A DNA stretch of 64,000 nucleotides, taken from positions 47,810-111,809 of the forward strand of contig CACZFI010000002.1 in NCBI GenBank assembly GCA_902780405.1, written 5' to 3'. This stretch comes from an uncultured Lachnospiraceae bacterium. Its GTDB lineage: Bacteria > Bacillota > Clostridia > Lachnospirales > Lachnospiraceae. Of the stretch, positions 23,219 to 56,474 are shown in pieces (positions within the stretch are counted from its first letter, which is position 1; every line of letters starts with the position of its first letter). Below the pieces are notes generated by a model. The model did no database searches and was not told the DNA's origin. It saw only the letters and a list, made by a program, of their open reading frames with translations. The position numbers and the translations under genes were made by a program.

Positions 23219-24112
23219 TCACAATGTCATTTTCATGCCCACGGTGTCAAAATGATACACTGAATCTGATAAATAATCCATTTCGGATACCACGGAGCGG
23301 TTAATCTCATAAACCATCCTCTCCAAACCTTCGCGATCCGGAAAGCTTTTCTCCGGCACCAAAAGCAACTCATGCACACTGGAAGGGAGGATATAAAAGT
23401 CCTCTCCCACTTCCCTGCTCGCAAGTTCCATTGCCTCGGGAAGAAGCATGGAAGTTGCACCGTTGATGTTGCTGGTATTCGTAAGCACGTAGATTCCCGT
23501 CTCGGCTCCTTCCGGCACAGGACAAGCCCCTTCCGTAAGGAGTCTTGCAATCAGAGTATCCAACCGCTCGATCCTCGGCGGAAACAGTTTTAAGGTGTTA
23601 ACCTTCGCGAGTTCAAAGAGATGATCGACATCCTCTCCCCACTTGACTAAGTCGCTGTTTTCCACCGCCGTGGAAGATACGCCGTCCCCCGAGACTTTGG
23701 TCAGATACCTGAAGGTGACCGCAAGATCATGGAAGAGGATATACGGCATATTCCGCAGGGATGGTTCATTCTTTTTGTAGTTCACCACTCTTAAAAACAC
23801 ATGGTCTTCATATGCATCCTTTGAAAAGTCCGCATACTCTCCTTCGGAGAGAACGGATGATGCTCTCCGATACTCCGCAGCGATCTCTGCAAGCACGGTT
23901 TCCATAGACGCTCCGCTTTCGTACATGGAGTAATAGTACTCCATGTAAATGTTTGGTGCCACAGGCGCATCCTTCTTCCTTAGCATAAGGCCCTGCAGTA
24001 AAACACCGTTGTTCTTCTCAATCGGTCGCACCGATACGTCCTCGAAATCACAATCGAGGAGATAGTCGCCGATCTCATCGACGACAGCATTCAAAAATTC
24101 TTTATAATCCAT
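23219..24112 (-). CDS. DUF5688 family protein
   Basis: KNNGVLLQGL, APNIYMEYY, VLTNTSNINGA, YILPSSVHE and YLSDSVY pattern recognised from memory. Confidence 0.75.
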   Translation of the reverse strand: MDYKEFLNAVVDEIGDYLLDCDFEDVSVRPIEKNNGVLLQGLMLRKKDAPVAPNIYMEYYYSMYESGASMETVLAEIAAEYRRASSVLSEGEYADFSKDAYEDHVFLRVVNYKKNEPSLRNMPYILFHDLAVTFRYLTKVSGDGVSSTAVENSDLVKWGEDVDHLFELAKVNTLKLFPPRIERLDTLIARLLTEGACPVPEGAETGIYVLTNTSNINGATSMLLPEAMELASREVGEDFYILPSSVHELLLVPEKSFPDREGLERMVYEINRSVVSEMDYLSDSVYHFDTVGMKMTL

Positions 24113-26908: not shown

Positions 26909-28879
26909 TCAGATACCGGCAGCCTCCTGGCTGTCCTTGACCAGTTTCTGAAGTACAACCCGTACCTCCTCCACAGTCTCGGAAATGCTGTTGGTGGAAT
27001 CGGAGATTTCCTCGGTCGAAGCGGCAAGTTGGCCGATCTTATCCTTCACACTCTCCACGATGTCGAGCAGCTGGGATGTCTCGCCTGCAATATAGCTGAT
27101 GGCATCCTGAATGTTGCTGTTCGCCTGTCCGCTGCTTTCCGCCGTCTCCTTGGAATCGGCCGCTAAGTTGTTGATCTCACCTGCGACAACCGCAAATCCC
27201 CTGCCTGCCTCACCCGCTCTTGCAGCCTCGATCGAAGCATTCAGCGCAAGCAGATTGGTCTGGTTGGCGATATCCACGACTTTGTCGTTGTTAGCCGTAA
27301 GTTCTTTTAAAGCGCCCGTGATATTGCCGATGGAATCGTTCAGTTTCTCGCAGAAGCTCGTGACACTTGTCATCTCCTCGGAGATGGAAGCGCTTTGCTT
27401 TGCGTTGTTTTCATTACCCTCGGACATACCGCTGATGGACTCGCGAAGTTCGCCGAACCTCTCGTTGATATCCTCCACGATGTGATAGATCTCATCGCGC
27501 TGCGCATTTAAGACAGCTCTCTCGTGCTCCACCATATCCTGTGCTTCCACCTTCTCAAGTTCCACGAGATCCTTCAGGTAGTGCACACAGTTGTCCTTGT
27601 GATTAAAGCCGTTGTAGATGGCCGTCGCCATCATCTTGCAGCTGTCGTAACCGCAGCAGGAACAGTTGATCTTTCTGGATGCATCGGTCAGCTTGTGCAT
27701 ATCCGTAAAGATTCTGTCGAGTTCCGCAGGTGACGGCGTCTTGTAAGTACACTGCGCCGACCTGTCGGTATAGTTGCGGATATAATCCTCAAGCTTCAAG
27801 TGCTCGAACTGCTTGTTTAACGCAGCCAGCCTCTTCTCCGGTGTAAGTGTCCTTGACCATACGCTCTTCTTGTCGTTCTTCTTGACACTCTCCTGAATGT
27901 CATGGATGTGATAAAGCGGATCATCACAGTCCGTCACCGCGGGATCCGTGGCCGTACCGCAGATACATCCGTTCTCGCAGTTTAGAGCGTCCACGAACAG
28001 ATAAGGCGTTCTGCCGCCCTTGATTCTGTCGGCGTTCTTCTCTAAGTAGTGGTACATCTTCTTCTCGCCCTCAATCTGGCGGATGAAGACTTCGTTGCCG
28101 AGAAGCCAGTAGACGTTCTCCTTCAGGCCGCCGGGCATCGGATAGATCGAACCGAGACCGTACTCGATCTCATCCTTGATGGGATCCCCCATCAGGTTGT
28201 GGCTCTTCACATACTTCATCAGATGGTCAAATGTGACGTTGTACCGAATGTAGCCCTTGGTGTTCGGATCGGCGATCTCCATCTTCTTGGCGATACAGGG
28301 ACTGATAAACGCGAACTGATCCGTGATCCCAAGTTCTTTTCTCGCATAGATGGCAGCGCACATCATCGGACTGTGCACGGGAAACAGCTTCGGAAGAAGC
28401 TCCGGCAGATAGCGCTCGATATAACCCACCACCGCGGGACAGGGCTGGGAGATGCCGCCTAAGTAGTTGTGTTTCTGAATGTAGTTAATATAACCCCAAG
28501 TTGTGATATCAGCACCGAACGAAACGCTGATCAATCTGTTCACGCCGAGTTTCTTTAAACCACCCAATACTCTCTCGTAATCCCTCGGGTAGTCTGCGAG
28601 AAACGCCGGTGCAATCAGTACGGATATCCTTTCACCCCTCTTTAACGCCTCAAAGAATTCCTCCGTGTCGTCACGGAATTCTCTTGCATGATGCTCACAG
28701 GCATCAAAGCAGGCGCCGCACGAAATGCATCTGTCCTTGTCTACTTCTATACGGGACACCCCGTTTGCGTCAGCTTCCGTCGAGACGCAAGCTCCCATAC
28801 AACTACAGGCACTGATACACTTGTTGCAGCCTACACAATTTTCATTTGTGTAGACCAAAGATTCCTTTCCGAATTCCAT
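26909..28879 (-). CDS. [FeFe]-hydrogenase-like domain fused to a methyl-accepting chemotaxis signalling domain (putative group C2 sensory hydrogenase)
   Basis: Two CxxCxxCxxxC ferredoxin motifs; H-cluster-like motifs [15 protein letters not shown] and [10 protein letters not shown]; extra FeS motif [10 protein letters not shown]...NC; MCP core [27 protein letters not shown]. Confidence 0.85.
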
Positions 28880-28920
28880 ATGAAGTACACCTCCGCAAGT
28901 TATATAAACACACAGAATTA

Positions 28921-29979
28921 TTATAAATCAAACGATTTTATTTCGCAAAGAAAATCTGCATATGCGCGCATTTCCTCATCGGTTCCGATGGAGATACGAA
29001 GGAAGTTGTCGATGCGCGGTTTGTCAAAATATCGAACCAGAAAACCGGCCTCTTTCGAACGTGCGAAGATCTCCTTCGCCGGGATCGTCGGATGAGACGC
29101 AAAGACAAAATTTGCGGAAGAAGGAAGCACGGTATAGCCCGCCTTGCGAATAGCCTCGGCAAAAGCCTCACGTGTCTTTATAACCTTATCTACCGTTTCT
29201 TTAAAATACGCATCATCCCGAATACTCTCCACACCGTAGATGATGGAGGGACGGTTCATTGTATAAGAATTGTAAGAATACTTAACGTCATTTAAGTAGG
29301 CGATCATCTTCTCGCTTCCGATGGCATATCCGATCCGAAGTCCCGCCATGGAGCGTGATTTGGAAAATGTACGAACCACCAGAAGGTTCTCGAATTCATC
29401 CAAAAGCGTAAGGGCCGAAGTTCCGCCGAAGTCAATGTAAGCCTCATCTACGATCACAACCACATTCGGGTTCTTGGAGATGATGGAACGAACATCCTCA
29501 ATCGGAAGCGCAATGCCCGTGGGCGCATTGGGATTGGGGAAGACGATACCTCCGCACTCCCGTGCGTAGTCCGCCGGATCGATCCTGTAATCCCCGGTTA
29601 AGGGAATGGTCTCAAAAGGAATCTCCAGCATATCTGCCCATACATCATAAAATGAATAGGTGATATCCGGGAAGAGAATCTTCTTTCCGCTGTGAAAGAA
29701 TGTCATAAAAGCCATGGCAAGCACGTCGTCCGATCCGACGCCGACAAATACACGCTTGTCGCTTACGCCGTGATACTCTGCGATCGCATGCACAAGATCC
29801 GATGCCGTGGGATCCGGATAGAGCCTTAAAGCATCAAACGAAAGCGCTGCCGCCTCAACCTTCGGTGAAGGCGGGTACGGATTCTCGTTGGTATTTAATT
29901 TTACATAGGTCCGTTCCTTCGGCTGCTCGCCGGGAGTATACGGAACAACTTTTCGTACATTTGCTTCCCAAGTTGACAT
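28921..29979 (-). CDS. hisC: Histidinol-phosphate aminotransferase
   Basis: [26 protein letters not shown] and [15 protein letters not shown]. Confidence 0.93.
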
Positions 29980-33723: not shown

Positions 33724-33755
33724 GTCACTCACCAAAAAAACTGCCGATTCACAAG

Positions 33756-33786
33756 AAAAGGACCTGCTACCGTCGTAACAAGTCCT
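33756..33786 (-). terminator. Terminator after rpmE
   Basis: AGGACTTGTTAC/GTAGCAGGTCCT stem followed by TTTT. Confidence 0.65.
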
Positions 33787-33807
33787 GATTTCTTATACGA
33801 ATCAATC

Positions 33808-34014
33808 TTATGCCTGTGTAACACCGTACTTACGGTTGAACTTATCGATTCTACCTCTTGCCTGAGCAGCCTTCTGCTGGCCTGTGTAGAATGAATGGCA
33901 CTTGGAACAGATTTCCACGTGGATCTCTTCCTTGGTAGAACCTGTTACGAATTCGTTTCCGCAGTTACATACAACCTTTGCCTGATAGTACTCAGGATGG
34001 ATGCCTTCTCTCAT
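33808..34014 (-). CDS. rpmE: 50S ribosomal protein L31 (Zn-binding type)
   Basis: [23 protein letters not shown] and [11 protein letters not shown]. Confidence 0.97.
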
Positions 34015-34074
34015 GTCTTTCACCTCTTAATTATACTACTGTAAACGATCCCGACCGTTATAACAGCAAGTGAT

Positions 34075-34103
34075 AGTTTACCACAGAAAATCGCTATATG
34101 CAA
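34075..34103 (-). promoter_or_regulatory. rpmE promoter
   Basis: TTGCAT-17 nt-TAAACT with an extended TG. Confidence 0.65.
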
Positions 34104-34135
34104 GCGTTTTTTAGCGGAATTCACAAGATGCACTC

Positions 34136-34264
34136 CACCGGACACATACTTGTTTCAGGGGACGCTCCCGCTTCGATCTCACACGCAGCGGTACTAAGCT
34201 CAGCTGATGCTTCGCTAAGTGCCGGCGTGTTCGGCGACCCCGTTCAACAAGCATGTGTCCGGTG
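34136..34264 (+). repeat. Structured dispersed repeat, copy 1 (REP/MITE-like)
   Basis: Terminal inverted repeat CACCGGACACATACTTGTT...AACAAGCATGTGTCCGGTG; the interior is nearly identical to the reverse complement of 48195-48321. Confidence 0.85.
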
Positions 34265-34294
34265 TCGCTGTATTTCTGGATTCTGTAACACTTT

Positions 34295-34317
34295 CGTAAT
34301 GGGGTCAGGCACCTTTT
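34295..34317. repeat. 23-bp direct repeat, copy A (CGTAATGGGGTCAGGCACCTTTT)
   Basis: Identical to 34629-34651. Confidence 0.95.
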
Positions 34318-34581
34318 TGTTCCTTCATTTTTCTATATAGTTCTGCTAATTCCAACAATTCAATTCCCAGTCCATCTTCATGATTCCATGAATCAACTAT
34401 CACCCTAGGATATAACAAAGGCAGACATTTGCGTATCATTGTTTTTTCTAACTCTTTTAAGATGCTAATCAATTGTGTTTTGTTTTTTTTTGCTTCTACC
34501 AAGTTCAACAGCTTCTATTTCTAATTTTAGCTTTTGTTGAATCTCCATGTTTTTTTTCTTGAAGTCGGCTTCTAATGACAT
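34305..34581 (-). pseudogene. AT-rich ~91-aa ORF split by a +1 frameshift at an A9 tract
   Basis: GGAGG RBS and ATG at 34581. As read, it stops at 34465 after 38 aa. Deleting one A of the A9 tract (34483-34491) joins it to the 34305-34508 frame, whose TGA lies inside repeat A. Confidence 0.65.
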
Positions 34582-34628
34582 TTAATCAAATCCTCCAAAT
34601 CATTTATGTACCACTGCCTTGCACCACC

Positions 34629-34651
34629 CGTAATGGGGTCAGGCACCTTTT
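34629..34651. repeat. 23-bp direct repeat, copy B
   Basis: Identical to 34295-34317. Confidence 0.95.
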
Positions 34652-34705
34652 CTCGGCACTTTTTCTCGCTAAATTATACTAACAGCACATTTCTATTTTC
34701 TGTTT

Positions 34706-34975
34706 CTAGTTAGGAATTCTCATAATAAACGCTTTTAAAGCTTTTTCCCCTTTTTCACTTAATAATAACTCTAATGCTGTCTTTCCATCAAATTTCCGAA
34801 GCGGAGTATTAAACCAGTCGCCCCCATTATTCCCTATTATCGAATAAACCGCATTTATCACATCCTGAGGAACACCCTTGATTATAATATCGACTTTATC
34901 GAAACAATTAGCAAAATCTATCCAATCATCATCATTGTATTCATCATAGAAAAAATCAATCATATTCAATGTCAA
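34706..34975 (-). CDS. Small AT-rich protein with an Xre/MbcA/ParS-like C-terminal motif (start uncertain)
   Basis: DWFNTPLRKFDGKTALELLLSEKGEKALKAFIMRI resembles the WLxxPxxxLGGxxPLxLL...G...RI toxin-binding consensus. Confidence 0.55.
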   Translation of the reverse strand: MTLNMIDFFYDEYNDDDWIDFANCFDKVDIIIKGVPQDVINAVYSIIGNNGGDWFNTPLRKFDGKTALELLLSEKGEKALKAFIMRIPN

Positions 34976-34976
34976 T

Positions 34977-35105
34977 TCACCCCCACTTGGTTATATTATC
35001 AATCAACTCCTGTTTATTCATATTTTCAAATATGTATATTCCTTGCCAAAGCCTGTCAATTCCATCTTTCCAGTTTTCATATTCACTCTTGTTAGCCTGC
35101 TCCAT
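34977..35105 (-). CDS. Possible 42-aa ORF or gene remnant
   Basis: Hand translation: MEQANKSEYENWKDGIDRLWQGIYIFENMNKQELIDNITKWG*. Weak AAGGA RBS; fills the gap between the ATPase and the MbcA-like ORF. Confidence 0.35.
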   Translation of the reverse strand: MEQANKSEYENWKDGIDRLWQGIYIFENMNKQELIDNITKWG

Positions 35106-35123
35106 TCTGAATCTATTTCCTTC

Positions 35124-36173
35124 TCAAAACGCTTCCAGCTTACGCTTGACAAACTCCGAAAACCTCGGCAGTTTAACGGATAATACGCCCCATTGCGAGT
35201 CATCAATGACACCTTTATTGGCGAGGCGTTCCTTGTACTGAGAGAATTCGTTTTTCTTCTGTCCGGTCAGTTCTAAAAGCTCCGCTGTCTTCATAGATTC
35301 CTTCTGTGCGATAAAGCTCATGAAGAAGCGATCCTTCTCCGACATCTCAGCCCAGATTTTATTATAGACATAAGCCTCCAGTGCTTCGTCGAAGTGCATG
35401 AGCACATCCTCCGTAAGCTTGTGTTCTTCGCTGTCCCATACGTACTTACCAAGTGCCTGATACGCAAACGGATAACCCTTGGTTTGTCTTGCCAACTCTC
35501 CGGCCTCGTCTTCGCCGATACCTAGTGTGTCGCGATAGCTGTTTTTCATGGCAACAAAATTGAGTGGTGCCATGTGATACTTCGGCGCTCTGTAAAGGAA
35601 TGTCAGATTCTTCTCATCTTCAAGATTGTGGATGTTCTCATACAATCCCGCCATAACCAGATAAATTGGCAGTTCCTGTCGCACCATAATCTGAAAGCTT
35701 CCCGCAAATTGTTTCATGGATGCAGTATTACACACCTCATCAACAGTAACCAGCAAGCGCTTATTCTTCTTTTTCATTTCCGTAAGAATCTTCTCTAATG
35801 CTGCTTCGATGTCTGCGGTCGGCGGTACATTTTTCACAGAAACACCGATTCCGAAAGCCGAGAGATTGATTCCCTTTTCGAAAAACTTTTTGAAATCGCC
35901 GTCATGATCATAAATCTTGGCAACCAGACTGTTCAACATATCCCTTTCCGTGTTGAGTCCGATTACAATCCAGTCTTTCTGCTCGCGAATGCGACTCTCG
36001 ATTGCTGTCATCGTGACTGTTTTTCCGGATCCGCGCACACCGCACAGCATAAAGCACTGATTCTGCACAATGTCGGATTCCAACTCATCCACTATCTCAT
36101 CCACGACCAGCCCTCGTTCAATATACTGATGTGGTTTTCTTCCGAAAGATAAAACATACGGATTCTTATCCAT
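35124..36173 (-). CDS. Accessory AAA+/P-loop ATPase with a probable C-terminal winged helix
   Basis: NPYVLSFG, CGVRGSGKT, VTVDEV, TKGYPFAYQ and C-terminal FSQYKERLANKGVI. Confidence 0.85.
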   Translation of the reverse strand: MDKNPYVLSFGRKPHQYIERGLVVDEIVDELESDIVQNQCFMLCGVRGSGKTVTMTAIESRIREQKDWIVIGLNTERDMLNSLVAKIYDHDGDFKKFFEKGINLSAFGIGVSVKNVPPTADIEAALEKILTEMKKKNKRLLVTVDEVCNTASMKQFAGSFQIMVRQELPIYLVMAGLYENIHNLEDEKNLTFLYRAPKYHMAPLNFVAMKNSYRDTLGIGEDEAGELARQTKGYPFAYQALGKYVWDSEEHKLTEDVLMHFDEALEAYVYNKIWAEMSEKDRFFMSFIAQKESMKTAELLELTGQKKNEFSQYKERLANKGVIDDSQWGVLSVKLPRFSEFVKRKLEAF

Positions 36174-41283: not shown

Positions 41284-44200
41284 CTATTTTCGTCCATACT
41301 TTTTCATTTTGCGTGAAAGTACCACTGCTCCTGCGCCCGAAACGCTCATCATGAAGACGATCAGCATGATCGGTGCCATATCTCCGGTCTTCGGTGAATC
41401 TGCGGATCCCATGTATCCGTAAAGTACAGGCTCATTGGTTGCCGTCTTTGAAGGTGTTACCGTTGCATCCTTGGACTTATTGCCGGAATCTGAGGACCCG
41501 CCGTTGCCTCCGTTGCCGGGATCGGGGTTTGTCTTGCCCTTCTCGTGTGAGGTAAAGAGTGCCGCAATCACGGTGTCACCGGTAATCTTGTCGTACGCCT
41601 TGTCCCATCTTTCGAATGTGTAGGTGTACTTATCCGTAGCCTTCTTGGTCGGCGTCTTGGTGGGCGGCGTAGCTGCCTTGCCCTCCTGTACGGTTTCCGT
41701 CTTCATCACGGCACCGTCACCATCAACCCACTTCACCGTGTAGTTCTTCGGATTCGGCTTCTCTACTTTGTAAAGCGCATATACCGAGAACATATTGGTG
41801 CGGATGGAAATCTCATCGTGTGTCAGTGTCACAGACTCATAATCATCACCGCTGATGAAGGTGTATCCGTCCTCACTGTTGCCGTGCAGGGATGCCACAT
41901 AGATGGTCTGACCTGCCAGGTCGCCGAGCGGGAATGTCACCGTGATCGGCTCATAGAGATGATCGAGGAAGCAGGGTGTTTCATTTACATGAACGCCGTT
42001 CCTGTCGATAACTTCCTTCACGATGGTAAGCTCAATGTATCTTACGATCTGAGCATCTTTGCCGACACCGTCATCCAGAGCCTTCTTGGCAACACCGCTC
42101 ACATCCACATACTTTGCATGAAGCGTGATCTTGATGGAACCTCCGTTGGCTACAACCTGCTCATCGTCGGGTGTGACATTGCCCTTGTAAAGCGCGGTGT
42201 TGTAAATCTTCTCGAGTCCGTCTACCGTAAGTTCCACGTCTCCGTCATCAAGCTCAACCGCAGTGCTCTTGCCCTGATTCAGAATGAGATGCACGCCGTT
42301 CTTGGTGCCGTAATCGGTCGGATAAGTGATTCCCTCGTTTGCAACGGTCACCGACTGCTCGGAATTAAGGCTTCCGTCTGTTGCAACGATTCTGTAGGAT
42401 CCGGCAGGAATGTCATCGAAGAAGAATGCCGTATTGTCCGCATCCGTGATCTTCGCTCCCGCTACAGCCGTGTTGCCTTTGTAAAGGCTTACATAGATCG
42501 GGAAGTTCTTAAATGCATCATCCGTGCCGGTTGCATAATCCGCAGTGCCTCGGATGGTAGTACCCTTATCGTAATTCAATGTCTTGAAGGATCCGGATAC
42601 CACGATCTCTTCATTGGACGTCTTGGTCTTGGCATGTACGCGATAATCGTAAGTGGTATCCGCCTTAAGTCCCGTCCAGTTGTTGGTCAGGTGCAGACCG
42701 CTTCCGGTAGCTTCCTTGTTCACAAGTGCCGAACGATATGCGGATTCGGACCTCTTCTTGAACTCGATGTAGCATCCGCTCTCATCGATGTCGTCGGATC
42801 CCTTCACAACATCTGCCTCGATGTGTGCGCCGCTTGTGGTGATGGCACTTACAGGTGATACTGTCATGGAAAGCGGTGTGAATACCACTTCATCCGACTT
42901 GTTGCCTGCAATATCGTATGCGTAGATGGTGTAGGTGTTGTTACCTGCTGCGGTAAAGCTTCCTGTGATCAGTCCGTCGTTTTCATCAACGTGAATCGGT
43001 GTGTCATTGACATAAACCTTGGTTGCATCCGGTCCGCTCACCTGGTCTGTTACTCGGAAGTTCACGGTGACATTGCCATCCGCTACTACCGAGCTTGTGA
43101 TCTCTACCTTCGGGAGCTCGGTGTCCACCTTCAAGGTCTTAGTCGCCTTTAAGCTCTCAACGCCGGACTGGCTCACTGCATAAGCCTCAATGCTTACCTC
43201 GCCCTGCTTGTCCACTGTGAAGGACTTTGTGGCCGTGGTAAATGTATCGGAGTCGGAATTGGCTCCCTTGTTGTAGATCACCTTGTAGTGTGTGGTGACA
43301 GCCGTATTGTCCGCGGTCATGGTTGTGGAATTTACGGTTGCCTTCGGTGCCTCGGTAATATACCAGCTGTCATTACCGAGCTTACCCTCGCCCTGAAGTT
43401 CCACGTCGATGGTCGGTGTCTCGGGCGGTGTATTGGAAATCTTGTTGAATGTCTTTACCTTGGTGGCTTGATTGCCGGCCTTATCGGTAGCAACGATGGT
43501 GTAGCTGCCGTTCTTGGTAATGGTGTAGGTATACGCACTCTCCGCCGTCCAGGACTTTAAGAGGTGGGTATCATCAATTGTCAATCCATCGTACAGCTTT
43601 ACGCTATCCACGCCGGACTCGTTGGCAGGCTCGGTTACCGTAAAATTCAAGTTGATCTGCTGCTTGAACTCCGTGGAATCCACATCTTCTCCCGCGTCAA
43701 TGGTCGGCTCGTTCGGGTCATACATAAATGAACCGACGGAATCCGTAGTGTAGGAGTTGCCTGCGTTGTCATATACGACACCCTGCGCACTGTAGGCACC
43801 GGCCTCGGTATAACCGAGTGTCTTGGAGAAGGTATAACCTGTTACCTTTCCGTAATCCTTCTTGGCTGAAGCGCCTGCTTCGGTTACTGTCTCGGTTGTG
43901 GTGTCTGTTGCACCGGAGGGAAGTGTGATCTTCCACTCAAACTTGTTAAGACCGCTGGCATCATCCGTAGCCGCAGCCGCAAATGTAAGGTCATTGTACC
44001 AGATGGGGCTGTCCGGCGTGGAAGCGCTTGCCGGCGCTCCGTCTGAAGATGCACTGATCGTCGTACCGACGATAGTGTTTTCCACGATCCACTCATAGTA
44101 AGGATCGCCGGGTTTTACAGATTCGTTGGCATTGCCGGTGTTGAGTTTTAATTTACTTGCTTCGGAAGGGATTCCGAGTTCATTCTTCGCATATACGATC

Positions 44201-47200
44201 AGCTGGCCCCTGTCACCGGATCCGATGGAGAAGTTGAATGTATAACAGTCTCCTGCCTTCGTCGGATTCTTGATCACAGATTCCTTGTTGCCCACCTTGC
44301 TGCCGGACTCATCAAGGAAGTAGTAATAAAGTTCCGTACACTGGCTTCCGCTGGTCTCATAGGTCACACTGAAGTTTAAGCCGGACATATTATTATAATA
44401 TGCACCGAAGGTAAGTCCGGGTGCGAAGAAATTCGGCTTACCGGGATTCACTTCGTATGCTACCAGTCTCGGCATATCGGGATCGATATTGATGTTGGTA
44501 AGTGTTACCTTGGTCGCAACCGCATGATCTGCGGAATTGTAAAGCAGGAAGTCAATGGTTGCATTCGTCAGTTCTTCATTGATAAAGATCTGACCGGAAA
44601 GACCTGTCTCTGCTGCCGAATGGGTTGTACCCTGTGCAATGTCGGATCCTGTTCCGTTCATGGAAAGAAGTCGGATCTTGTCGTACTTGGTCGTATCCTT
44701 CGGTGTGATGGTAAGACTTCCATAGTAACCGTTCACGGGAGTCTCTGCGATCTCGTAGAAATTCTCGCCGGGGTCACGGGAAACATTCACTGTCTGAGAA
44801 TTCACAACCGTTACGGCATAGTTACCGTCCGTTGCAAATGTCGGTGTTACGGTGTAGCTGGATTCCGCAGGTGCGTACAGATTGCTCTGCAGATGATTCC
44901 ATGAAGACTGCGGATTCATACCCAGGTAATTGGTAAGGAATGCATCCGGATCCGCATCATACAGATCTCTTTCGGATGCCGCAAGTTTGGTCTTGTCCTG
45001 AACACGAACAATATAGTCCGGGTTGTCCTGTCCGAAGAGGATGTCGTTCGAAGCGCCTGTCGGAAGCTCCGTGGTCACCTTGACGGGTGCCTGGTCTACG
45101 GTGGCGATTCCGTCCGTCACGATGGTACCACCGCTTACGCCTGTAAGTTCATAGTAATCGGAGATGTCATTGTCCGATCCGTCCAATGCATGAAGCACGG
45201 CGCCGGTCAGTGTCAGGCTCTTGCCCGTACCCGCATCTTTGCCGCGTTCGCTTCCGTTATCATTCAAAGTTGCCTGTGAATCGTAGGTCACATAAACCTT
45301 GTCATTATTCACCGTAGCCGCGCCGGTAACTTTAGCGGTCGCATTAACGGAGATTGTATTCAGTCCGTCGTAAGTCTTTGAAGGTGCATCCGTTCCGCCG
45401 TTGCCGCTGAATACGGTCGTGCTGTCTAAGGCCACCTGTCTCTTGTTGATGGTGATTGTGATCGTAAGCGGTGTGCCCGTACCACCCTCGATCTCGTTCG
45501 GGTCTCTTGCGACCGCGTCGAGTGTCAGAACGTCCGTCTTGTTGGGTGTACCGGAAACGGTATATGCGTTGGTTGCACCGGTTACTCCGAGCCCATAGGT
45601 ACCTAAGGTAGATACGTCTCCGGCATCGAGTTCGATCGTTACATCCTCGCTGGCTGTACCGCCGTTCTTGTAACGTGCGGAAATCGTATGTGTGGATCCG
45701 GTCTCGCCGTAGGTATAGTCGAGGCTTGCGGTTCCGACCTGCGGCTCCCCGTCTACCAAAAACTCTAGCTGTCTGTACTCCCATACACCGACTAAGGTGA
45801 CACCGCCGACATTCTGATCCACGGTAGGATCAGCGCCGTTCACCGTAAGGCCGTTCACCGTGTTCACAGTGGCGTTCGCGATCAGGTCCGTACCTGTGGA
45901 AATTCTCCAGCCTGCCAGATAGTATGCAGGGTTCTTGCAGTAAGATGCCACCGATTCCGCTGTGGGAAGTGTTGCGGTCGAACCGTAATTATAAGTAGCA
46001 TCGGAAAGGAATTCCTGGCTGCCCGATGCGGAAAGATCGTCAATTTCGTCTGCATCGAAGAGCTGGAATCGAAGATCCACAGACTTCGGCGACCATTTGG
46101 ATGTAAACTCAACCACGTTGTTCTCGGAAGTTACGGCAAATGTCTCGCCGATGGCATGAAAGGCGTTGCCGTTGATACCTGTGAAGTTCCATCCGAAACG
46201 ATAGTAATTATATGTAGCAGCGTTGCCTACGGTGTAGTTCACGCTGGGTTTTGTCTTTCCGAAGTTCTCGGAAGACTCGGGAACGGGAAGTTCGATCACA
46301 ACCGGATTGTCATAAGCTTCCGTTGCGTTGTTTCCGTCGTCCTCAAGTCCATCGGAAATGTTAAGTGTATATTTGGTTCTTGAAACAGAGAAATAATAGT
46401 TTAACTCATAGATCTTGCTGTTGGTGGTACCACAGGAAACCGTCGTTGCCGAAGAGTTCTGTGCCGTACTGAATGCCTGATCCGTATAAAGGTAGTTCGT
46501 TCCGTCCGCCTTGTCTACCTTAAAGTAGTCCGCACTGTAGCCTGCATCCGCAAGGAGCTGAGCTGCGGGACGGAATGTAAGGGTTGCGATACGGGGCTTG
46601 TTGGTCTCTCCGTTATCTTCATAGCTTACGACAGCCGTATCATCCGTAAAGACGGTTCTCTTGCCGGCATCCGCCGTAACTAAGATGTAGTTGATCTTTA
46701 CGTCGTCGAGACCGTCCGTTCTGCCTGCGACATTCTTGGTCTCCGCAGACAAGCCAAAAGCAGAGGCAAGTGCATCCTCTGTAGTGGTATCGGAATCGGT
46801 TGTATTTGTATCGTTGGAGGTGTCGGCAGCGGGATCGTCTGCCACATCGATGACATTGTCGTCAAGTCCGTCGGAAAGATCTATGTTATCGGTATCGCTA
46901 TTTGAGGTGTTGGTATCGTCGGTTGTTAAGGCAGTGTCAGTTGCAGGATCTGCGGGATCGGTTACTTCGGACTCATCTTCCGCTGCCGCTTCGGTTGTCT
47001 CTTCCGTAGCGGTATCGAGTCCTTCCATGGATGCAGAGGACGTCAAAAACAGAGACTGTGTGATAAGAAGCGTCATCACAAGTACAGAAACTACAAGCTT
47101 CCGTCCGTTCCCCTTTCCCCAGTAGATCATATGCGAGATTGCGGTGATCACCGCAACCAAAGCAAGCGTCGGATAAACCAGGATCCGATGCTTCTTGCCG

Positions 47201-47241
47201 ACATCAAGCAGCCTTTTAACAATTCTGTCTTTCATACCCAT
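41284..47241 (-). CDS. ~1985-aa sortase-anchored multidomain surface protein
   Basis: N-terminal hydrophobic leader, acidic linker, InlB B-repeat-like units, YDG-like PSKTYDG, Ig/FN3-like segments (WTGLKADTTYDYRV), and C-terminal SPKTGD plus TM plus basic tail. Confidence 0.88.
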   Translation of the reverse strand: MGMKDRIVKRLLDVGKKHRILVYPTLALVAVITAISHMIYWGKGNGRKLVVSVLVMTLLITQSLFLTSSASMEGLDTATEETTEAAAEDESEVTDPADPATDTALTTDDTNTSNSDTDNIDLSDGLDDNVIDVADDPAADTSNDTNTTDSDTTTEDALASAFGLSAETKNVAGRTDGLDDVKINYILVTADAGKRTVFTDDTAVVSYEDNGETNKPRIATLTFRPAAQLLADAGYSADYFKVDKADGTNYLYTDQAFSTAQNSSATTVSCGTTNSKIYELNYYFSVSRTKYTLNISDGLEDDGNNATEAYDNPVVIELPVPESSENFGKTKPSVNYTVGNAATYNYYRFGWNFTGINGNAFHAIGETFAVTSENNVVEFTSKWSPKSVDLRFQLFDADEIDDLSASGSQEFLSDATYNYGSTATLPTAESVASYCKNPAYYLAGWRISTGTDLIANATVNTVNGLTVNGADPTVDQNVGGVTLVGVWEYRQLEFLVDGEPQVGTASLDYTYGETGSTHTISARYKNGGTASEDVTIELDAGDVSTLGTYGLGVTGATNAYTVSGTPNKTDVLTLDAVARDPNEIEGGTGTPLTITITINKRQVALDSTTVFSGNGGTDAPSKTYDGLNTISVNATAKVTGAATVNNDKVYVTYDSQATLNDNGSERGKDAGTGKSLTLTGAVLHALDGSDNDISDYYELTGVSGGTIVTDGIATVDQAPVKVTTELPTGASNDILFGQDNPDYIVRVQDKTKLAASERDLYDADPDAFLTNYLGMNPQSSWNHLQSNLYAPAESSYTVTPTFATDGNYAVTVVNSQTVNVSRDPGENFYEIAETPVNGYYGSLTITPKDTTKYDKIRLLSMNGTGSDIAQGTTHSAAETGLSGQIFINEELTNATIDFLLYNSADHAVATKVTLTNINIDPDMPRLVAYEVNPGKPNFFAPGLTFGAYYNNMSGLNFSVTYETSGSQCTELYYYFLDESGSKVGNKESVIKNPTKAGDCYTFNFSIGSGDRGQLIVYAKNELGIPSEASKLKLNTGNANESVKPGDPYYEWIVENTIVGTTISASSDGAPASASTPDSPIWYNDLTFAAAATDDASGLNKFEWKITLPSGATDTTTETVTEAGASAKKDYGKVTGYTFSKTLGYTEAGAYSAQGVVYDNAGNSYTTDSVGSFMYDPNEPTIDAGEDVDSTEFKQQINLNFTVTEPANESGVDSVKLYDGLTIDDTHLLKSWTAESAYTYTITKNGSYTIVATDKAGNQATKVKTFNKISNTPPETPTIDVELQGEGKLGNDSWYITEAPKATVNSTTMTADNTAVTTHYKVIYNKGANSDSDTFTTATKSFTVDKQGEVSIEAYAVSQSGVESLKATKTLKVDTELPKVEITSSVVADGNVTVNFRVTDQVSGPDATKVYVNDTPIHVDENDGLITGSFTAAGNNTYTIYAYDIAGNKSDEVVFTPLSMTVSPVSAITTSGAHIEADVVKGSDDIDESGCYIEFKKRSESAYRSALVNKEATGSGLHLTNNWTGLKADTTYDYRVHAKTKTSNEEIVVSGSFKTLNYDKGTTIRGTADYATGTDDAFKNFPIYVSLYKGNTAVAGAKITDADNTAFFFDDIPAGSYRIVATDGSLNSEQSVTVANEGITYPTDYGTKNGVHLILNQGKSTAVELDDGDVELTVDGLEKIYNTALYKGNVTPDDEQVVANGGSIKITLHAKYVDVSGVAKKALDDGVGKDAQIVRYIELTIVKEVIDRNGVHVNETPCFLDHLYEPITVTFPLGDLAGQTIYVASLHGNSEDGYTFISGDDYESVTLTHDEISIRTNMFSVYALYKVEKPNPKNYTVKWVDGDGAVMKTETVQEGKAATPPTKTPTKKATDKYTYTFERWDKAYDKITGDTVIAALFTSHEKGKTNPDPGNGGNGGSSDSGNKSKDATVTPSKTATNEPVLYGYMGSADSPKTGDMAPIMLIVFMMSVSGAGAVVLSRKMKKYGRK

Positions 47242-47442
47242 ACCTTTCACCTCAAAATGTACTGATACTCTGCCTTATAAGCACTAAAACGCGGGCATAA
47301 ATGCCCACACTGACTCAATAGTATAAGACATTTTACCATATTGCAACAAAAAATAAAATACTTTTTTATAAGATTTATACCAAATATAGTATCTTTTTTG
47401 ATTCAGGTTCGGATATTTTGTAGTTTTGCTTCCGGATTCGGA

Positions 47443-49301: not shown

Positions 49302-50345
49302 TTACTTTGCTGCCATCTCAGCCTTTAATGCTGCTGTAAGTGCAGGAACGATCTTGTTTAAGTCGCCGACTACACCGTAGTCTGCTACATCGAAGATCGG
49401 AGCATCCGCATCCTTGTTGATTGCGATGATGATGTCGGACTCTTCCATACCTGCAACGTGCTGGATAGCACCGGAGATACCGATTGCAAAGTATACGTTC
49501 GGACGTACGGTCTTACCGGTCTGTCCTACCTGGAGATCCTTCGGCTTCCAACCGGAATCTACAACTGCACGAGAGCAGGATACCTGTCCGCCAAGTACCT
49601 CAGCGAGATCCTCAAGGATCTTGAAGTTCTCGGGGCTTCCTACGCCACGTCCGCCGGATACAAGGATCTTGGCATCCATGATATCTACGGTATCGGATAC
49701 AGCCTTAACTACGTCAAGGATCTCAACGTAACGGTTGTTCTCGGTAAAGCCGGGATTGTACTCGATTACTTCTGCCTTCGCACCCTCGATCTTGTCGATC
49801 TTCTGCATAACGCCGGGACGTACGGTTGCCATCTGAGGACGGTTGTCCGGGCAAGCGATGGTTGCGATGGTGTTTCCGCCGAATGCAGGACGGGTCATAA
49901 GCAGCTGATTGTGCTTCTGCTCCTGATTCGGAATCGGGTTGATCGGGAAATCACCGATCTCAAGAGATGTACAGTCTGCTGTAAGACCGGTTGCAACTCT
50001 TGCGGATACGGTCGGGCCTAAGTCACGACCGATTGCTGTAGCACCGACAAGCATGATGTCGGGCTTGTACTCGTTGATAACAGATGCCAGTGCATGTGCA
50101 TAAGGCTCTGTACGATATGTCTCAAGTGCGGGATCATCCACTACGATGACCTTATCTGCGCCGTAAGCTGCAAGCTCGTCAGCAAGGCTCTTTACGTCCT
50201 TACCGAGGAGAACTGCGGTTACGTCAGTGTTCAAATCCTTTGCCAGGTCTCTTGCCTTGCCGAGCAGTTCGAAAGCGATACCGCTTAACTGATTATCTAC
50301 CTGCTGAGCGAAGACATAGACGCCCTTATATTCTTCTAATCCCAT
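49302..50345 (-). CDS. etfA: Electron transfer flavoprotein alpha subunit
   Basis: TRPAFGGN, SGGRG, QVGQTGKTVRP and GISGAIQH. Confidence 0.96.
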   Translation of the reverse strand: MGLEEYKGVYVFAQQVDNQLSGIAFELLGKARDLAKDLNTDVTAVLLGKDVKSLADELAAYGADKVIVVDDPALETYRTEPYAHALASVINEYKPDIMLVGATAIGRDLGPTVSARVATGLTADCTSLEIGDFPINPIPNQEQKHNQLLMTRPAFGGNTIATIACPDNRPQMATVRPGVMQKIDKIEGAKAEVIEYNPGFTENNRYVEILDVVKAVSDTVDIMDAKILVSGGRGVGSPENFKILEDLAEVLGGQVSCSRAVVDSGWKPKDLQVGQTGKTVRPNVYFAIGISGAIQHVAGMEESDIIIAINKDADAPIFDVADYGVVGDLNKIVPALTAALKAEMAAK

Positions 50346-50379
50346 GATATTCTTCCTTTCTGGTTATTTCCTGCGCTCA

Positions 50380-51162
50380 TTAGATGATGTGCTTTTCTTT
50401 CATCTTGCCTACGATGTAAGCAACAGACTCTTCGGGGTCAACGTTCACCTTCTCGCCGCTTCCCTTACGTACCTTGTCGGAAGCCTTTGCGATCTTGGTC
50501 GGTGAACCCTTTAATCCGAGGTTCGCATCATCAACATCTACGAGGTTCGCTCTGCCCCAGGTTGTGATCTCTGCATCAAGTGCATCGAAGATTCCGCCGG
50601 GAGTCATGTAACGAGGATCGTTCAGCTCGGAAAGAGCTGTGATGAGTGCGGGCATCTTAGCCTTTACCATGTGATATCTGTCTTCATACTGACGCTTAAC
50701 TACTACGGAGTCACCCTCGATCTTGATCTCCTCAGCATAGGAGATAACGGGAAGTCCGAGGTGCTCTGCGATCTGAGGTCCTACCTGTGCGGTATCGCCG
50801 TCGATTGCCTGACGACCTGTGATGATGAGGTCATAATCAAGATTTCTGATCGCACCTGCAAGTGTGGTGGAAGTAGCCCATGTATCGGCACCGCCGAGTA
50901 CACGATCGGTTACAAGGATACCCTTGTCAGCGCCCATAGCCATAGCCTCGCGAAGAACATCCTCTGCCTTCGGAAGGCCCATGGTGATAACGGTAACTTC
51001 AGCGCCGTACTGATCCTTTAAGCGAAGTGCTGCCTCAAGGCCGGCCTTGTCATCCGGGTTCATGATTGTGAGCATTGCTGCTCTATTTAATGTACCGTCC
51101 GGGTTGAACTGAACGCCGCCCTTGGTATCCGGTACCTGCTTTACACATACTATAACCTTCAT
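50380..51162 (-). CDS. etfB: Electron transfer flavoprotein beta subunit
   Basis: CVKQVPDT, NPDD, GADTWATS and GRQAIDGDTAQVGP. Confidence 0.96.
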   Translation of the reverse strand: MKVIVCVKQVPDTKGGVQFNPDGTLNRAAMLTIMNPDDKAGLEAALRLKDQYGAEVTVITMGLPKAEDVLREAMAMGADKGILVTDRVLGGADTWATSTTLAGAIRNLDYDLIITGRQAIDGDTAQVGPQIAEHLGLPVISYAEEIKIEGDSVVVKRQYEDRYHMVKAKMPALITALSELNDPRYMTPGGIFDALDAEITTWGRANLVDVDDANLGLKGSPTKIAKASDKVRKGSGEKVNVDPEESVAYIVGKMKEKHII

Positions 51163-51172
51163 GTCGTACCTC

Positions 51173-52339
51173 CTACTTTAAAATGTTTGCAGAGATGACC
51201 ATGCGCTGTACTTCGGAAGTACCCTCGTAGATCTCTGTGATCTTGGCATCTCTCATCATACGCTCTACATCGTACTCACGGATGTAGCCGTAACCGCCGT
51301 GTAACTGAACAGCCTTGGTGGTAACTTCCATAGCGATCTCTGCTGCTGCAAGCTTTGCCATAGCTGCCTCTACGGAGTAAGAGGTCTTGTGGTCAATCTG
51401 ATACTGTCCCTTCGCCATAGCTGCCTTGTATACGAGAAGCTTTGCAGCCTCTACCTTGGTAGCCATATCAGCAAGCTGGAACTGTGTATTCTGGAACTGA
51501 GCGATGGAACGTCCGAACTGCTTTCTCTCCTTCACATACTCGATGGTACGCTCGAGAGCGCCCTCAGCAAGGCCGAGTGCCTGAGCAGCGATTCCGATAC
51601 GTCCGCCGTCAAGGGTGTGCATAGCGATGTTGAATCCCTTGCCCTTCGCACCGAGGAGGTTCTCCTTCGGGATACGGCAATCCTGGAAAATAAGCTCATA
51701 AGTAGATGATCCGCGGATACCCATCTTATTCTCCTTCGTACCGAAGGTGAATCCGGGTGTACCCTTCTCTACGATAAATGCAGAGATCTCTTTCATGGTC
51801 TTGCCACGCTTCTCAACAGTACCGGTAACTGCGATCACGATATAGATATCAGCTTCCTTACCGTTGGTGATGAAGCACTTGGAACCGTTTAATACCCACT
51901 CATCGCCGTCAAGAACAGCCTTGGTCTGCTGACCCTGGGCATCGGTACCTGCGCCGGGCTCGGTAAGACCGAATGCACCGAGCTTCTCGCCCTTTGCAAG
52001 GGGTACTAAGTACTTCTGCTTCTGCTCTTCTGTACCGTAAGTCTGGATCGGGTCTGCACACAGGGATGTATGTGCGGAAACGATAACGCCTGTAGTACCG
52101 CAAACCTTGGAGAGCTCCTCTACACACATAACGTATGTAAGGGGATCACATCCCTGTCCGCCGTACTCCTTCGGAATGGGGATTCCGAGGAAGCCGTACT
52201 TCGCCATCTTATCTACAGTCTCTCTCGGGAATTTCTCTGTCTCATCAACTTCCTGAGCGAGAGGCTTCACTTCGTTCTCTGCAAATTCTCTGAAGAGAGT
52301 CTGCGCCATTTCATACTTTTTGTCTAAAGCGAAATTCAT
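51173..52339 (-). CDS. bcd: Butyryl-CoA dehydrogenase
   Basis: [31 protein letters not shown] and [10 protein letters not shown]; operon context. Confidence 0.93.
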
Positions 52340-52418
52340 CTTTTATGTTTCCTCCATATACTATTCGATATCGCTCTAAGCCGCGACGGGCTCCTTCGGT
52401 CAGGGACCGAAAGCAGTT

Positions 52419-53258
52419 TTACTTGCTGTAATCGAAGAAACCGATGCCGGTCTTCTTACCAAGCTTCTTCTCTTCTACCATCTTCACAAGAAGGGGTGCC
52501 GGAGCGTACTTGTCATCGCCGGTCTCCTTATGAAGTACCTGCATGATAGCGAGGCAGATGTCAAGGCCGATCAGGTCGCCAAGATGAAGAGGTCCCATGG
52601 GATGGGATGCGCCGAGCTGCATAGCAACATCGATATCTTCTGCGGAAGCGGTACCTGCATCAAGTACATTGATTGCTTCGTTGATCATGGGGATGAGGAT
52701 ACGGTTTACTACGAAACCGGGAGCTTCCTTCACCTCAACGGGTGTCTTGCCGATCTCGGTAGCGATCGCCTTGATCTTATCAACCATCTCCTGAGGTGTA
52801 TTCTCGCCCTTGATAACCTCAACGAGCTTCATACGGTCAGCAGGGTTGAAGAAATGCATACCGATCATCGGACGATCAAGACCCTCACCGATCTTGGTGA
52901 TGGAAAGAGATGATGTGTTGGATGCAAACATGCAGTCCTTCTTAACAATGCTCTGAAGAGACTTGAAGATGTTCTTCTTGATCTCAAGATCCTCTAAAGC
53001 AACTTCTACAACAAGATCGCAGTCAGTGCAGATGTCCTGAAGACCTGTGGTAACCTTACCAAGGATCTCGTCTGCCTTCTCCTGTGTGATCTTCTCCTTG
53101 CTTACAAGGAACTTCATGTTCTTCTCGATCTTTGCCTTACCGCCGTCAGCGAACTCCTGCTTGATGTCACAGAGTCTAACCTCGTAGCCGTCTGTCATGG
53201 CAAAAGCCTGTGCGATACCGGAACCCATGGTTCCTGCGCCGATAACTCCTACTATCAT
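52419..53258 (-). CDS. hbd: 3-hydroxybutyryl-CoA dehydrogenase
   Basis: GAGTMGSG, SNTSS, GMHFFNP, PGFVVNR and HPMGP. Confidence 0.95.
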   Translation of the reverse strand: MIVGVIGAGTMGSGIAQAFAMTDGYEVRLCDIKQEFADGGKAKIEKNMKFLVSKEKITQEKADEILGKVTTGLQDICTDCDLVVEVALEDLEIKKNIFKSLQSIVKKDCMFASNTSSLSITKIGEGLDRPMIGMHFFNPADRMKLVEVIKGENTPQEMVDKIKAIATEIGKTPVEVKEAPGFVVNRILIPMINEAINVLDAGTASAEDIDVAMQLGASHPMGPLHLGDLIGLDICLAIMQVLHKETGDDKYAPAPLLVKMVEEKKLGKKTGIGFFDYSK

Positions 53259-53286
53259 CTTTCGTCCTCCTAATGATATATAATGA

Positions 53287-54078
53287 TTACTTATTCTGGA
53301 AGGGTACTACCTTCAATTTCTTTTCTTTGTCCTTCTCGAGGAAGTTTGCCATGCCGGCCTTCTGATCCTCTGTCTCGAAGCAGTCGCCGAAAAGCTTCTC
53401 TTCGATCACAACAGCGGAATCGATATCTGTCTGAAGTCCGTCATTGATAGCCTTCTTGCAGTTTCTAACAGCGATGGGAGCATTGGCTGCGATACCTGCT
53501 GCCATCTTCTTCGCTGCGGGAAGGAGTTCCTCAAGGGGATAAACCGCATTCACAAGACCGATACGATATGCCTCGTCTGCCTTGATATTTCTTGCGGTAT
53601 AGATCAACTGCTTTGCCATACCCGGAGATACAAGTCTTGCAAGTCTCTGTGTGCCGCCGAAGCCCGGTGTGATACCGAGACCTACCTCGGGCTGACCGAA
53701 AACGGCATTCTCGGAGCAGATACGGATATCACAGCTCATGGAAATTTCACAGCCGCCGCCTAAAGCGAAGCCGTTCACTGCTGCGATCACGGGGATGGGG
53801 AACTTCTCGATCTTTAAGAAGATGTCGTTGCCCTTCTTGCCGAAAGCCTCGCCCTCAGCCTTGGTCAGTGTGCTCATCTCTCCGATGTCGGCACCTGCCA
53901 CGAAAGACTTCTCTCCTGCGCCTGTTAAGATCACGCATCTGGTGGTCTCAAGATCGATGGCATCAAATGTGTCGGATAACTCCTCAAGTACCTGAGAATT
54001 CAGTGCATTTAAAGCCTTCTGGCGATCGATGGTTACGATGCCGACAAAGCCTTCCTGCTCATATTTCACAAATTCCAT
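53287..54078 (-). CDS. crt: Crotonase (3-hydroxybutyryl-CoA dehydratase)
   Basis: KALNALN, FVAGADI, GFALGGGCE and QPEVGLGITPGFGGTQRL. Confidence 0.95.
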   Translation of the reverse strand: MEFVKYEQEGFVGIVTIDRQKALNALNSQVLEELSDTFDAIDLETTRCVILTGAGEKSFVAGADIGEMSTLTKAEGEAFGKKGNDIFLKIEKFPIPVIAAVNGFALGGGCEISMSCDIRICSENAVFGQPEVGLGITPGFGGTQRLARLVSPGMAKQLIYTARNIKADEAYRIGLVNAVYPLEELLPAAKKMAAGIAANAPIAVRNCKKAINDGLQTDIDSAVVIEEKLFGDCFETEDQKAGMANFLEKDKEKKLKVVPFQNK

Positions 54079-54090
54079 AGTGTTCCTCCG

Positions 54091-56427: not shown

Positions 56428-56474
56428 AAAAAAACACCGATGTACATCGTATGATACACATCGGTGTTGTTTTT
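56428..56474 (-). terminator. Terminator between the coiled-coil gene and mreB
   Basis: AACACCGATGT...ACATCGGTGTT stem with a T-tract. Confidence 0.8.

Follow-up and report, generated by a model that had tools for sequence, protein, structure and literature searches.

Can a fermenting bacterium steer by molecular hydrogen? The question is raised by a single gene in a 64,000-nt stretch of DNA (the window) that comes from a bovine gut metagenome assembly and belongs to an uncultured Lachnospiraceae bacterium (GenBank GCA_902780405.1, contig CACZFI010000002.1, positions 47,810 to 111,809). The H2 partial pressure governs the fermentation balance and the methane yield of the rumen, and we know of no receptor that has yet been demonstrated for the movement of a fermenter in response to H2. 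The gene (window 26909-28879, minus strand) encodes, as a single open frame, a protein of 656 amino acid residues (aa) in which an [FeFe]-hydrogenase is fused to the signalling hairpin of a methyl-accepting chemotaxis protein (MCP). On balance, the product is probably a cytoplasmic, presumably dimeric, chemoreceptor with a complete sensory-type [FeFe]-hydrogenase as its input, by which the cell steers with respect to H2.

The polypeptide has four parts, in this order: a 2x[4Fe-4S] ferredoxin domain, the H-domain of an [FeFe]-hydrogenase, an iron–sulphur (FeS) motif of the form Cx2Cx4Cx16C and a short MCP hairpin (Table 1). This arrangement had been proposed in a first-pass annotation made from the letters alone, and Pfam searches bear it out part by part. 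Fer4 and Fer4_7 cover the ferredoxin domain with its eight Cys, Fe_hyd_lg_C (PF02906) matches residues 85-308 (E=1e-29, 104 bits against a cut-off of 22), and MCPsignal (PF00015) matches residues 535-652 (E=2e-25, 90 bits against 35). The additional FeS motif, C406-x2-C409-x4-C414-x16-C431, scores slightly under the cut-off of PF04060 (21.1 bits against 23) and exceeds it in several relatives. Residues 433-534 are covered only by chance matches to Pfam families of the coiled-coil type. The protein had also been described as soluble and as having no PAS domain between its modules. Both descriptions hold: a transmembrane segment is absent, the highest 19-residue Kyte-Doolittle mean being 1.2, and no PAS family appears in the top 25 of 42 Pfam families listed at E<=1. 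In an AlphaFold monomer model built on 50 sequences, the hydrogenase half has a confidence score (pLDDT) of ~85-95. Foldseek matches this model to the solved [FeFe]-hydrogenases DdH, CpI, HydABC and CbA5H with a probability of 1.00 and target-normalised TM-scores of up to 0.64. Structures of group C or D are absent from the 50 Foldseek matches listed, the solved relatives all being catalytic enzymes.

The active site was paired residue by residue with that of 8a6t, a solved group A enzyme, by HMMER alignment. All four H-cluster ligands are present, C147, C195, C301 and C305 pairing with the ligands of 8a6t at the places where H-cluster-like motifs had been predicted. In motif L1, ISQPCP lies opposite TSCCP, with Pro146 facing the proton-relay Cys as the first-pass annotation had it; motif L2 lies opposite MPCIGKKFE and motif L3 opposite VEVMACPGGCMSG. 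Three catalytic positions are replaced (CpI numbering): Pro146 stands for C299, Ser193 for Met353 and Leu299 for Met497. The equivalents of Lys358 and Glu361 are retained, and an A-P-A stretch of the H-domain is also conserved. Opposite the Glu/Glu/Arg proton-pathway stretch of group A, which we take to be E279, E282 and R286 (CpI numbering) in 8a6t, the protein has a gap of four residues, Gly129 and Tyr133, and it lacks the group A proton relay. NCBIfam models of catalytic enzymes score well under their cut-offs, TIGR04105 (B1) at 147 against 450 and TIGR02512 (group A) at 83 against 406, so that by relay Cys, pathway residues, pocket Met and model score alike the protein lies outside the catalytic groups A and B.

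Relatives of the protein number more than 5,000 in the databases. The best 120 are 69-100% identical, and all have both hydrogenase and MCP domains in precomputed Pfam calls; the named ones come from Lachnospiraceae, Butyrivibrio, Pseudobutyrivibrio and Eubacterium and carry no annotation beyond ‘4Fe-4S binding protein’, ‘transcriptional regulator’ or ‘hydrogenase large subunit C-terminal domain-containing protein’. Relatives at 50-83% identity occur in 53 species-level genomes, nearly all of them metagenome-assembled genomes (MAGs) of rumen or gut Lachnospiraceae, together with the isolates G11 and COE1. The carriers include Butyrivibrio, Pseudobutyrivibrio and Roseburia, which are motile flagellates. 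Across 51 full-length orthologues in this identity range, the 16 ligand Cys (eight of the ferredoxin domain, four of the H-cluster and four of the C-terminal motif) are invariant. The observation is far beyond chance. A further Cys, Cys174, is likewise invariant in the 51 orthologues and present in ~92% of the 130 sensor modules described below; it occupies the Ile place of the group A stretch SPQQIFG, near the Ser-Pro of the H-cluster pocket in sequence, and is no known ligand.

The neighbourhoods of the orthologues hold positive, if modest, evidence for an H-cluster. The maturase genes hydE, hydG and hydF adjoin the orthologue in three rumen Lachnospiraceae MAGs, each time in a different arrangement (Table 1), and their products score well over the NCBIfam equivalog cut-offs (HydG, for example, at 926 bits against 312). 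By a rough estimate, chance alone would give ~0.3 such adjacencies in 51 loci, which is why the three observed carry some weight. In two of the loci (L015 and L006), the called hydE or hydG frames are short at the N-terminus, which may reflect the choice of start codon or the assembly. A second hydrogenase or a sensor paralogue was found neither in the window nor in the flanks of the relatives’ genes.

The junction between the cluster domain and the hairpin has a preferred length. In the model, a helix begins at residue 432, right after the ligand Cys431, and runs up to the hairpin tip with one low-confidence break at 488-495 (modelled helices 432-488, 495-554, 556-617 and 622-653). In 136 of 186 distinct MCP fusions, the last cluster Cys and the Glu of the tip are 126 residues apart, exactly 18 heptads; the distance is 129 residues in 39, 119 residues (17 heptads) in 5, 128 residues in 3, and 80, 178 and 434 residues in the remaining 3. 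The tip, of the canonical kind that contacts CheA and CheW and ending in [RK]GFAVVA, hardly varies across 50 orthologues and aligns with the tips of Thermotoga maritima and Escherichia coli receptors. The returning C-terminal arm has only 84-99 residues across the fusions (99 here), equal to 12-14 heptads with the heptad class judged by length alone. The receptor therefore belongs to the shortest length range, its first arm overhanging by four to six heptads to join the cluster domain. The sole conserved Glu pair, E623-E624 in AASTEEI, lies ~66 residues from the tip. Two candidate sites in the hairpin were rejected: the pair E501-E502, which resembles a methylation site, is not conserved, and Cys510 of the N-terminal arm, considered as a redox site, is invariant in close orthologues but a mere small-residue core position in the wider set of MCP fusions.

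Sensory enzymes with similar substitutions at the three catalytic positions assemble a working H-cluster and react with H2, namely TmHydS of T. maritima with Ala/Gly/Ser (PMC10055695) and TamHydS of Thermoanaerobacter mathranii with Ala/Ser/Leu (PMC8163306). From the architecture of the fusion and its conservation, we infer that it senses H2 in a comparable way. HydE, HydF and HydG would install the [2Fe] subcluster, and H2 would then be bound and slowly split, as it is in TmHydS and TamHydS. The H-cluster's altered state, and that of the accessory clusters, would be passed to the C-terminal cluster domain, which may, through Cys431, displace the register-locked helix, 18 heptads long to the tip, by a shift or a rotation. 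Control of the CheA kinase at the tip would be altered in consequence, and swimming biased relative to H2. Electrons can pass between the ferredoxin domain and the cell, so that the signal may reflect H2 in relation to the ferredoxin pool and not H2 as such. The host is marked as a butyrate-forming fermenter, with H2 as an end product, by a row of butyrate-pathway genes on the minus strand (window 49302-55287). In this row a thiolase (54091-55287) and an acyl-CoA dehydrogenase (51173-52339) are assigned by Pfam, and other frames resemble crotonase, 3-hydroxybutyryl-CoA dehydrogenase and EtfB/EtfA by eye only. For such a fermenter, escape from inhibitory H2 or approach to H2 consumers would be the most plausible movement.

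Several observations weigh against steering by H2. The hydEFG genes adjoin the orthologue in just 3 of 50 relatives’ loci, no other partner gene recurs (the best other cluster is found in 11 of 51 loci, and the neighbourhood is unconserved), and the 64-kb window itself holds no hyd, che or fla genes. The MCP half of the monomer model is of low confidence (pLDDT 45-70). A conserved Glu/Gln pair for methylation was not found in the outer heptads among the orthologues, and so short a hairpin may not fit into the arrays formed by the host’s other receptors. The C-terminal cluster in TamHydS stays unreduced under 1 atm H2 (PMC13104023), which makes a simple redox relay through this cluster doubtful; a conformational signal would be needed instead. 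The authors of that study, the latest on TamHydS, themselves prefer a conformational to a redox relay and leave the signalling route open (PMC13104023). Finally, the first-pass annotation had called the class to which it assigned the protein, [FeFe]-hydrogenase group C2 of HydDB, predicted but barely characterised; this agrees with the word ‘putative’ in HydDB and with the literature searched, which yielded no experiments on a protein that joins [FeFe]-hydrogenase to MCP, although this is not proof of absence.

The main rival is a general sensor for redox or energy taxis, in which the FeS clusters read the reduction of the ferredoxin pool, or O2, and the H-cluster site is one more redox centre, H2 not being the physiological cue. 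It differs from the H2 receptor mainly in the dominant cue, and we regard it as unlikely, though the best of the alternatives. The invariant 2x[4Fe-4S] entry domain of ferredoxin type would suit it, as would the soluble, cytoplasmic nature of the protein, which is shared with the energy sensors Aer and Aer2 that the MCP half matches, and the finding that the C-terminal cluster of TamHydS responds to strong reductants and not to H2 (PMC13104023). Such a sensor, however, has no need of the full set of H-cluster ligands or of the Lys and Glu by which the [2Fe] site is held, yet these are kept across hundreds of diverged modules. The adjacent hydEFG genes in three relatives, and the reaction of both TmHydS and TamHydS with H2, also argue against it.

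Considerably less probable is a Nar1-type protein restricted to FeS clusters, in which the four ‘H-cluster’ Cys bind just a [4Fe-4S] cluster, no [2Fe] site is made, and O2, nitric oxide or iron status is sensed through cluster damage. Its strength lies in the pocket, where the canonical C299, M353 and M497 are all replaced and where the single change M497L left a group A enzyme unable to hold the [2Fe] site (PMC10055695). TamHydS, with the same Ser353 and Leu497, nevertheless forms a working H-cluster (PMC8163306). The conserved Lys358, Glu361 and A-P-A stretch count against this proposal as well, as do the maturase genes beside the orthologue in L006, L007 and L015.

An equally slim chance, if not slightly slimmer, attaches to a receptor that senses as proposed but has an output other than flagellar taxis, its short hairpin feeding a separate chemosensory pathway for some other function of the cell or acting as an unmethylated modulator in cytoplasmic arrays. 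The length of the C-terminal arm and the want of a conserved outer-heptad methylation pair agree with this, and sister modules drive cyclic di-GMP (c-di-GMP) turnover and two-component systems, that is, lifestyle and not steering. Against it, the tip is canonical and nearly invariant, the carriers include motile genera, and four relatives have further MCP genes close by (Table 1). A catalytic hydrogenase with an incidental coiled-coil tail is very improbable: the hydrogenase fold and ligands are complete, but the proton pathway is missing, the catalytic models score far too low, the MCP domain is well over its cut-off and the module is swapped among signalling outputs.

This last point, which bears on the H2 receptor directly, comes from a search with the input module alone (residues 1-440) against 1.84 billion cluster representatives at 50% identity. 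It gave 3,304 matches at E<=0.001, of which 705 reach E<=1e-30. The outputs of the best 150 representatives were assigned by Pfam for 20 of them and then by local searches with profiles built from the domains so verified, architectures with PAS being counted under their output domain. MCPs follow the module in 42 representatives, histidine kinases, mostly hybrid, in 44, GGDEF with or without EAL in 38, SpoIIE/PP2C phosphatases in 3 and HD-GYP in 2; in the other 21, many of them fragments, no output was detected. About 21 of the 150 have a PAS domain after the FeS motif, and these are 40-47% identical to the query; the closest modules (50-66% identity) are direct fusions without PAS. Three of the arrangements are more elaborate. 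In a protein of 1495 aa (P0124), a kinase and a receiver precede the module and a second kinase core follows it. Elsewhere a PAS-GGDEF gene precedes a sensor-GGDEF-EAL gene (L055), and a dCache hybrid kinase gene divergently adjoins a sensor kinase gene (L056).

Within 130 representative modules the Pro/Ser/Leu/Asp signature, the Lys, the Glu and the eight ligand Cys outside the ferredoxin domain are common to every output type, and Pro holds the relay position in 39 of the 40 MCP-fused representatives and in most of the clade. In a maximum-likelihood tree of these modules the output types are interleaved. The MCP label needs 22 changes on the tree, at least 15 of them forced by well-supported branches, and the query’s own clade of seven (95% support) consists of four kinases, two GGDEF proteins and the query. 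Because of this interleaving, subclass names based on output are no guide to how the hydrogenase part evolved within this clade. Repeated re-wiring to every major bacterial signalling output is the expectation for a genuine sensory domain. In the kinases without PAS, the linkers to the phospho-accepting His are short and cluster at 31, 34, 38 and 45 residues, a pattern drawn from small numbers and from pattern matching only.

These fusions invite a wider and more tentative proposal, possible but well short of probable, that the PAS-less module with Pro/Ser/Leu/Asp is a universal plug-in H2 input of Clostridia. Signalling would be mechanical, with the first helix of the output (an MCP, the DHp domain of a kinase or the stalk of a GGDEF protein) heptad-locked to the final ligand of the C-terminal cluster. 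Were this so, natural fusions would answer how PAS-less, ‘group D-like’ sensory hydrogenases signal, and the present protein would count as one of the first chemoreceptors to sense H2 directly. HydDB groups C1, C2 and C3 would be outputs repeatedly swapped on one sensor lineage instead of lineages of their own, and the [FeFe] sensors linked to c-di-GMP and to HD-GYP would be further, uncatalogued output types. No description of sensors linked to GGDEF/EAL or HD-GYP was found in the literature searched, which is not proof of their absence.

The gene itself is unsurprising. Its class was catalogued in 2016, and the protein is an ordinary member that is very common in rumen and gut Lachnospiraceae. 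What the analysis adds is the adjacency of hydEFG, the interchangeable outputs of the PAS-less module, the 18-heptad register and the metatranscriptome matches described next. Work on sensory [FeFe]-hydrogenases has so far dealt with stand-alone or PAS-bearing enzymes of unknown output. Fusions in one polypeptide link the sensor to a readily assayed output, which is control of CheA in this protein and either autophosphorylation or c-di-GMP turnover in its sisters. Whether PAS-less sensory modules report H2, and how they do so, can therefore be tested with them in practice.

Contigs of 228-288 nt from three bovine metatranscriptomes match the gene without mismatches. This fits transcription in vivo in the rumen, with residual DNA in such libraries a possible source. 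An identical protein, with the same neighbours, is encoded on an independent 7.5-kb rumen metagenome contig. The DNA sequencing runs that contain the locus were metagenomes, or runs of unstated or coded organism with at most a fifth of its words; none was isolate-like. A GGAGG Shine-Dalgarno sequence stands 8 nt ahead of the ATG at 28879. The promoter-like site farther upstream (Table 1) is a consensus match only, such sites being no commoner than in shuffled sequence. No terminator-like site was found directly 3' of the stop codon, and a search of the whole window at Rfam gathering thresholds gave no RNA family, including any riboswitch between the sensor-MCP gene and metY.

Elsewhere in the window, all on the minus strand, are a full-length DUF5688 protein (23219-24112, E=3e-80) and three long frames without a Pfam match at E<=1e-5. 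One of these encodes 1988 aa with an N-terminal hydrophobic stretch (41284-47250); the other two adjoin each other and encode 1001 aa (56473-59478), beginning with a low-complexity stretch rich in Lys, Ala and Glu, and 851 aa (59523-62078). Upstream of a gene weakly resembling ATPase_2 (35124-36173) lie ~1.4 kb (33736-35123) with no open reading frame (ORF) above 90 aa and no Rfam family. The 2-kb bin over most of this gap (34001-36000) has the lowest G+C content of the window, 0.41 against ~0.50.

Table 1. Features of the sensor-MCP gene (window coordinates) and of selected loci in relatives (coordinates within each locus, L)
Feature	Residues	Position	Strand	Basis
Whole gene, soluble sensory-type [FeFe]-hydrogenase/MCP fusion		26909..28879	-	ORF and Pfam; stop codon 26909-26911
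Promoter-like TTGCGA-17-TATAAT, within 3' end of hisC		28920..28948	-	Consensus scan, 10/12 positions matching
2x[4Fe-4S] ferredoxin domain; C15, C18, C21, C25 and C51, C54, C57, C61	9-70	28670..28855	-	Pfam Fer4/Fer4_7, residues 14-66
H-domain, [FeFe]-hydrogenase fold	71-400	27680..28669	-	PF02906, AlphaFold pLDDT, Foldseek
Motif L1, SQPCP; Pro146 at CpI C299 (proton-relay Cys), Cys147 [4Fe-4S]H ligand	144-148	28436..28450	-	8a6t alignment
SPMMCAA; S-P of group A SPQQIFG and clade-specific Cys174	170-176	28352..28372	-	8a6t alignment
Motif L2, SPCIAKKME; Ser193 for CpI M353, Cys195 ligand, Lys198 and Glu201 retained	193-201	28277..28303	-	
Motif L3; Asp297 for Glu, Leu299 for CpI M497, Cys301 and Cys305 ligands	297-308	27956..27991	-	
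FeS motif Cx2Cx4Cx16C (C406, C409, C414, C431)	403-432	27584..27673	-	PF04060 and invariant Cys
MCP signalling hairpin	433-656	26912..27583	-	PF00015
Kinase-control tip	541-566	27182..27259	-	Conservation, alignment
hydE-hydG-hydF-sensor, one strand		L007:288-6345		NCBIfam equivalogs
sensor-hydE-hydG-hydF		L015:9042-14738		NCBIfam equivalogs
hydF and hydG 2 kb downstream of sensor, other strand		L006:205-6606		NCBIfam equivalogs
Ordinary MCP gene, ~670-700 aa, few kb from orthologue		L003:11268-13277		
Ordinary MCP gene, as above		L004:11677-13686		
Ordinary MCP gene, as above		L009:15201-17321		
Ordinary MCP gene, as above		L018:504-2513		

The protein has affinities to two groups of known hydrogenases. 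HydDB names [FeFe] group C2 ‘Chemotactic (putative)’ (Sondergaard, Pedersen & Greening 2016, PMC5037454), surveys of the rumen already include C2 genes in their counts and place them in Clostridia (PMC10811737), and a survey of Clostridium mentions the class (PMC9431212). The definition of C2, a sensory [FeFe]-hydrogenase joined to an MCP, describes this single polypeptide without a detectable difference. Its placement in C2 as a putative chemotactic sensor is supported in so far as the label comes from architecture, and this part of the first-pass assignment stands at the level of sequence. The other part, membership of group C, is less secure. The protein has the N-terminal 2x[4Fe-4S] domain, the H-domain without relay Cys and the Cx2Cx4Cx16C motif of group C (M2f), but not the PAS domain after the C-terminal cluster. 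Group C is defined by PAS in the literature, with group D (M2e) as its PAS-less sister that has Ser or Thr at M353 (PMC8163306). Lack of PAS, a hydroxyl residue (Ser193) at M353 and the Cx2Cx4Cx16C motif are all features of group D found here. Among the sensory group C sequences of HydDB, Pro is present at C299 in ~10% and Ser at M353 in ~32% (PMC10055695). In the tree described above, output type (MCP, histidine kinase or GGDEF) is not in step with module phylogeny.

TamHydS, a putative sensory enzyme of group D (M2e; PMC8163306, PMC10407848, PMC13104023), shares with the query the 2x[4Fe-4S] N-terminus, the Cx2Cx4Cx16C C-terminus, the lack of PAS and of the relay Cys, Ser at M353 and Leu at M497. 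The spacing from L1 to L3 is 154 residues in TamHydS, as inferred from published residue numbers, against 153 in the query. The group D proton path runs through Glu252, Glu289, Ser249 and Asp265 (TamHydS numbering), and the presumed counterpart of Glu289 is the invariant Asp297. A fingerprint of the published TamHydS residues had no match among the 270 proteins collected. The two differ in that TamHydS has Ala at C299 where the query has Pro, and ends after the C-terminal cluster without an output domain where the query carries an MCP. TmHydS, of group C (M2f; PMC10055695), resembles the query in its three cluster-binding parts, the loss of the group A proton pathway, its low-activity sensory character and a C-terminal cluster ahead of the signalling part. 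Unlike the query it has a PAS domain after this cluster, its residues at 299, 353 and 497 are Ala, Gly and Ser against Pro, Ser and Leu, and its spacing from C299 to M497 is 136 residues (published) against 153. That the module is nearer to TamHydS than to TmHydS, by its lack of PAS, Ser193, Leu299 and L1-L3 spacing, is a lead and not a result, the comparison being made from published residue numbers alone.

Two further systems are alike in logic rather than in parts. In Aer and Aer2, as here, a cytoplasmic input that bears a cofactor governs an MCP hairpin, and the MCP half has significant matches to them in NCBIfam and the PDB. Their inputs, however, are PAS domains with flavin adenine dinucleotide or haem, whereas that of the query is a metallo-enzyme module with four clusters, and the query has neither HAMP nor a membrane anchor and a much shorter hairpin. 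The regulatory [NiFe]-hydrogenases (HoxBC/HupUV with the kinase HoxJ/HupT; HydDB group 2b) likewise use a slowed hydrogenase as the H2 sensor for a signalling protein. Their metal site and fold are unrelated, and they work as separate subunits with transcription as the output, whereas the query would join sensor and signal in one polypeptide with taxis as its predicted output.

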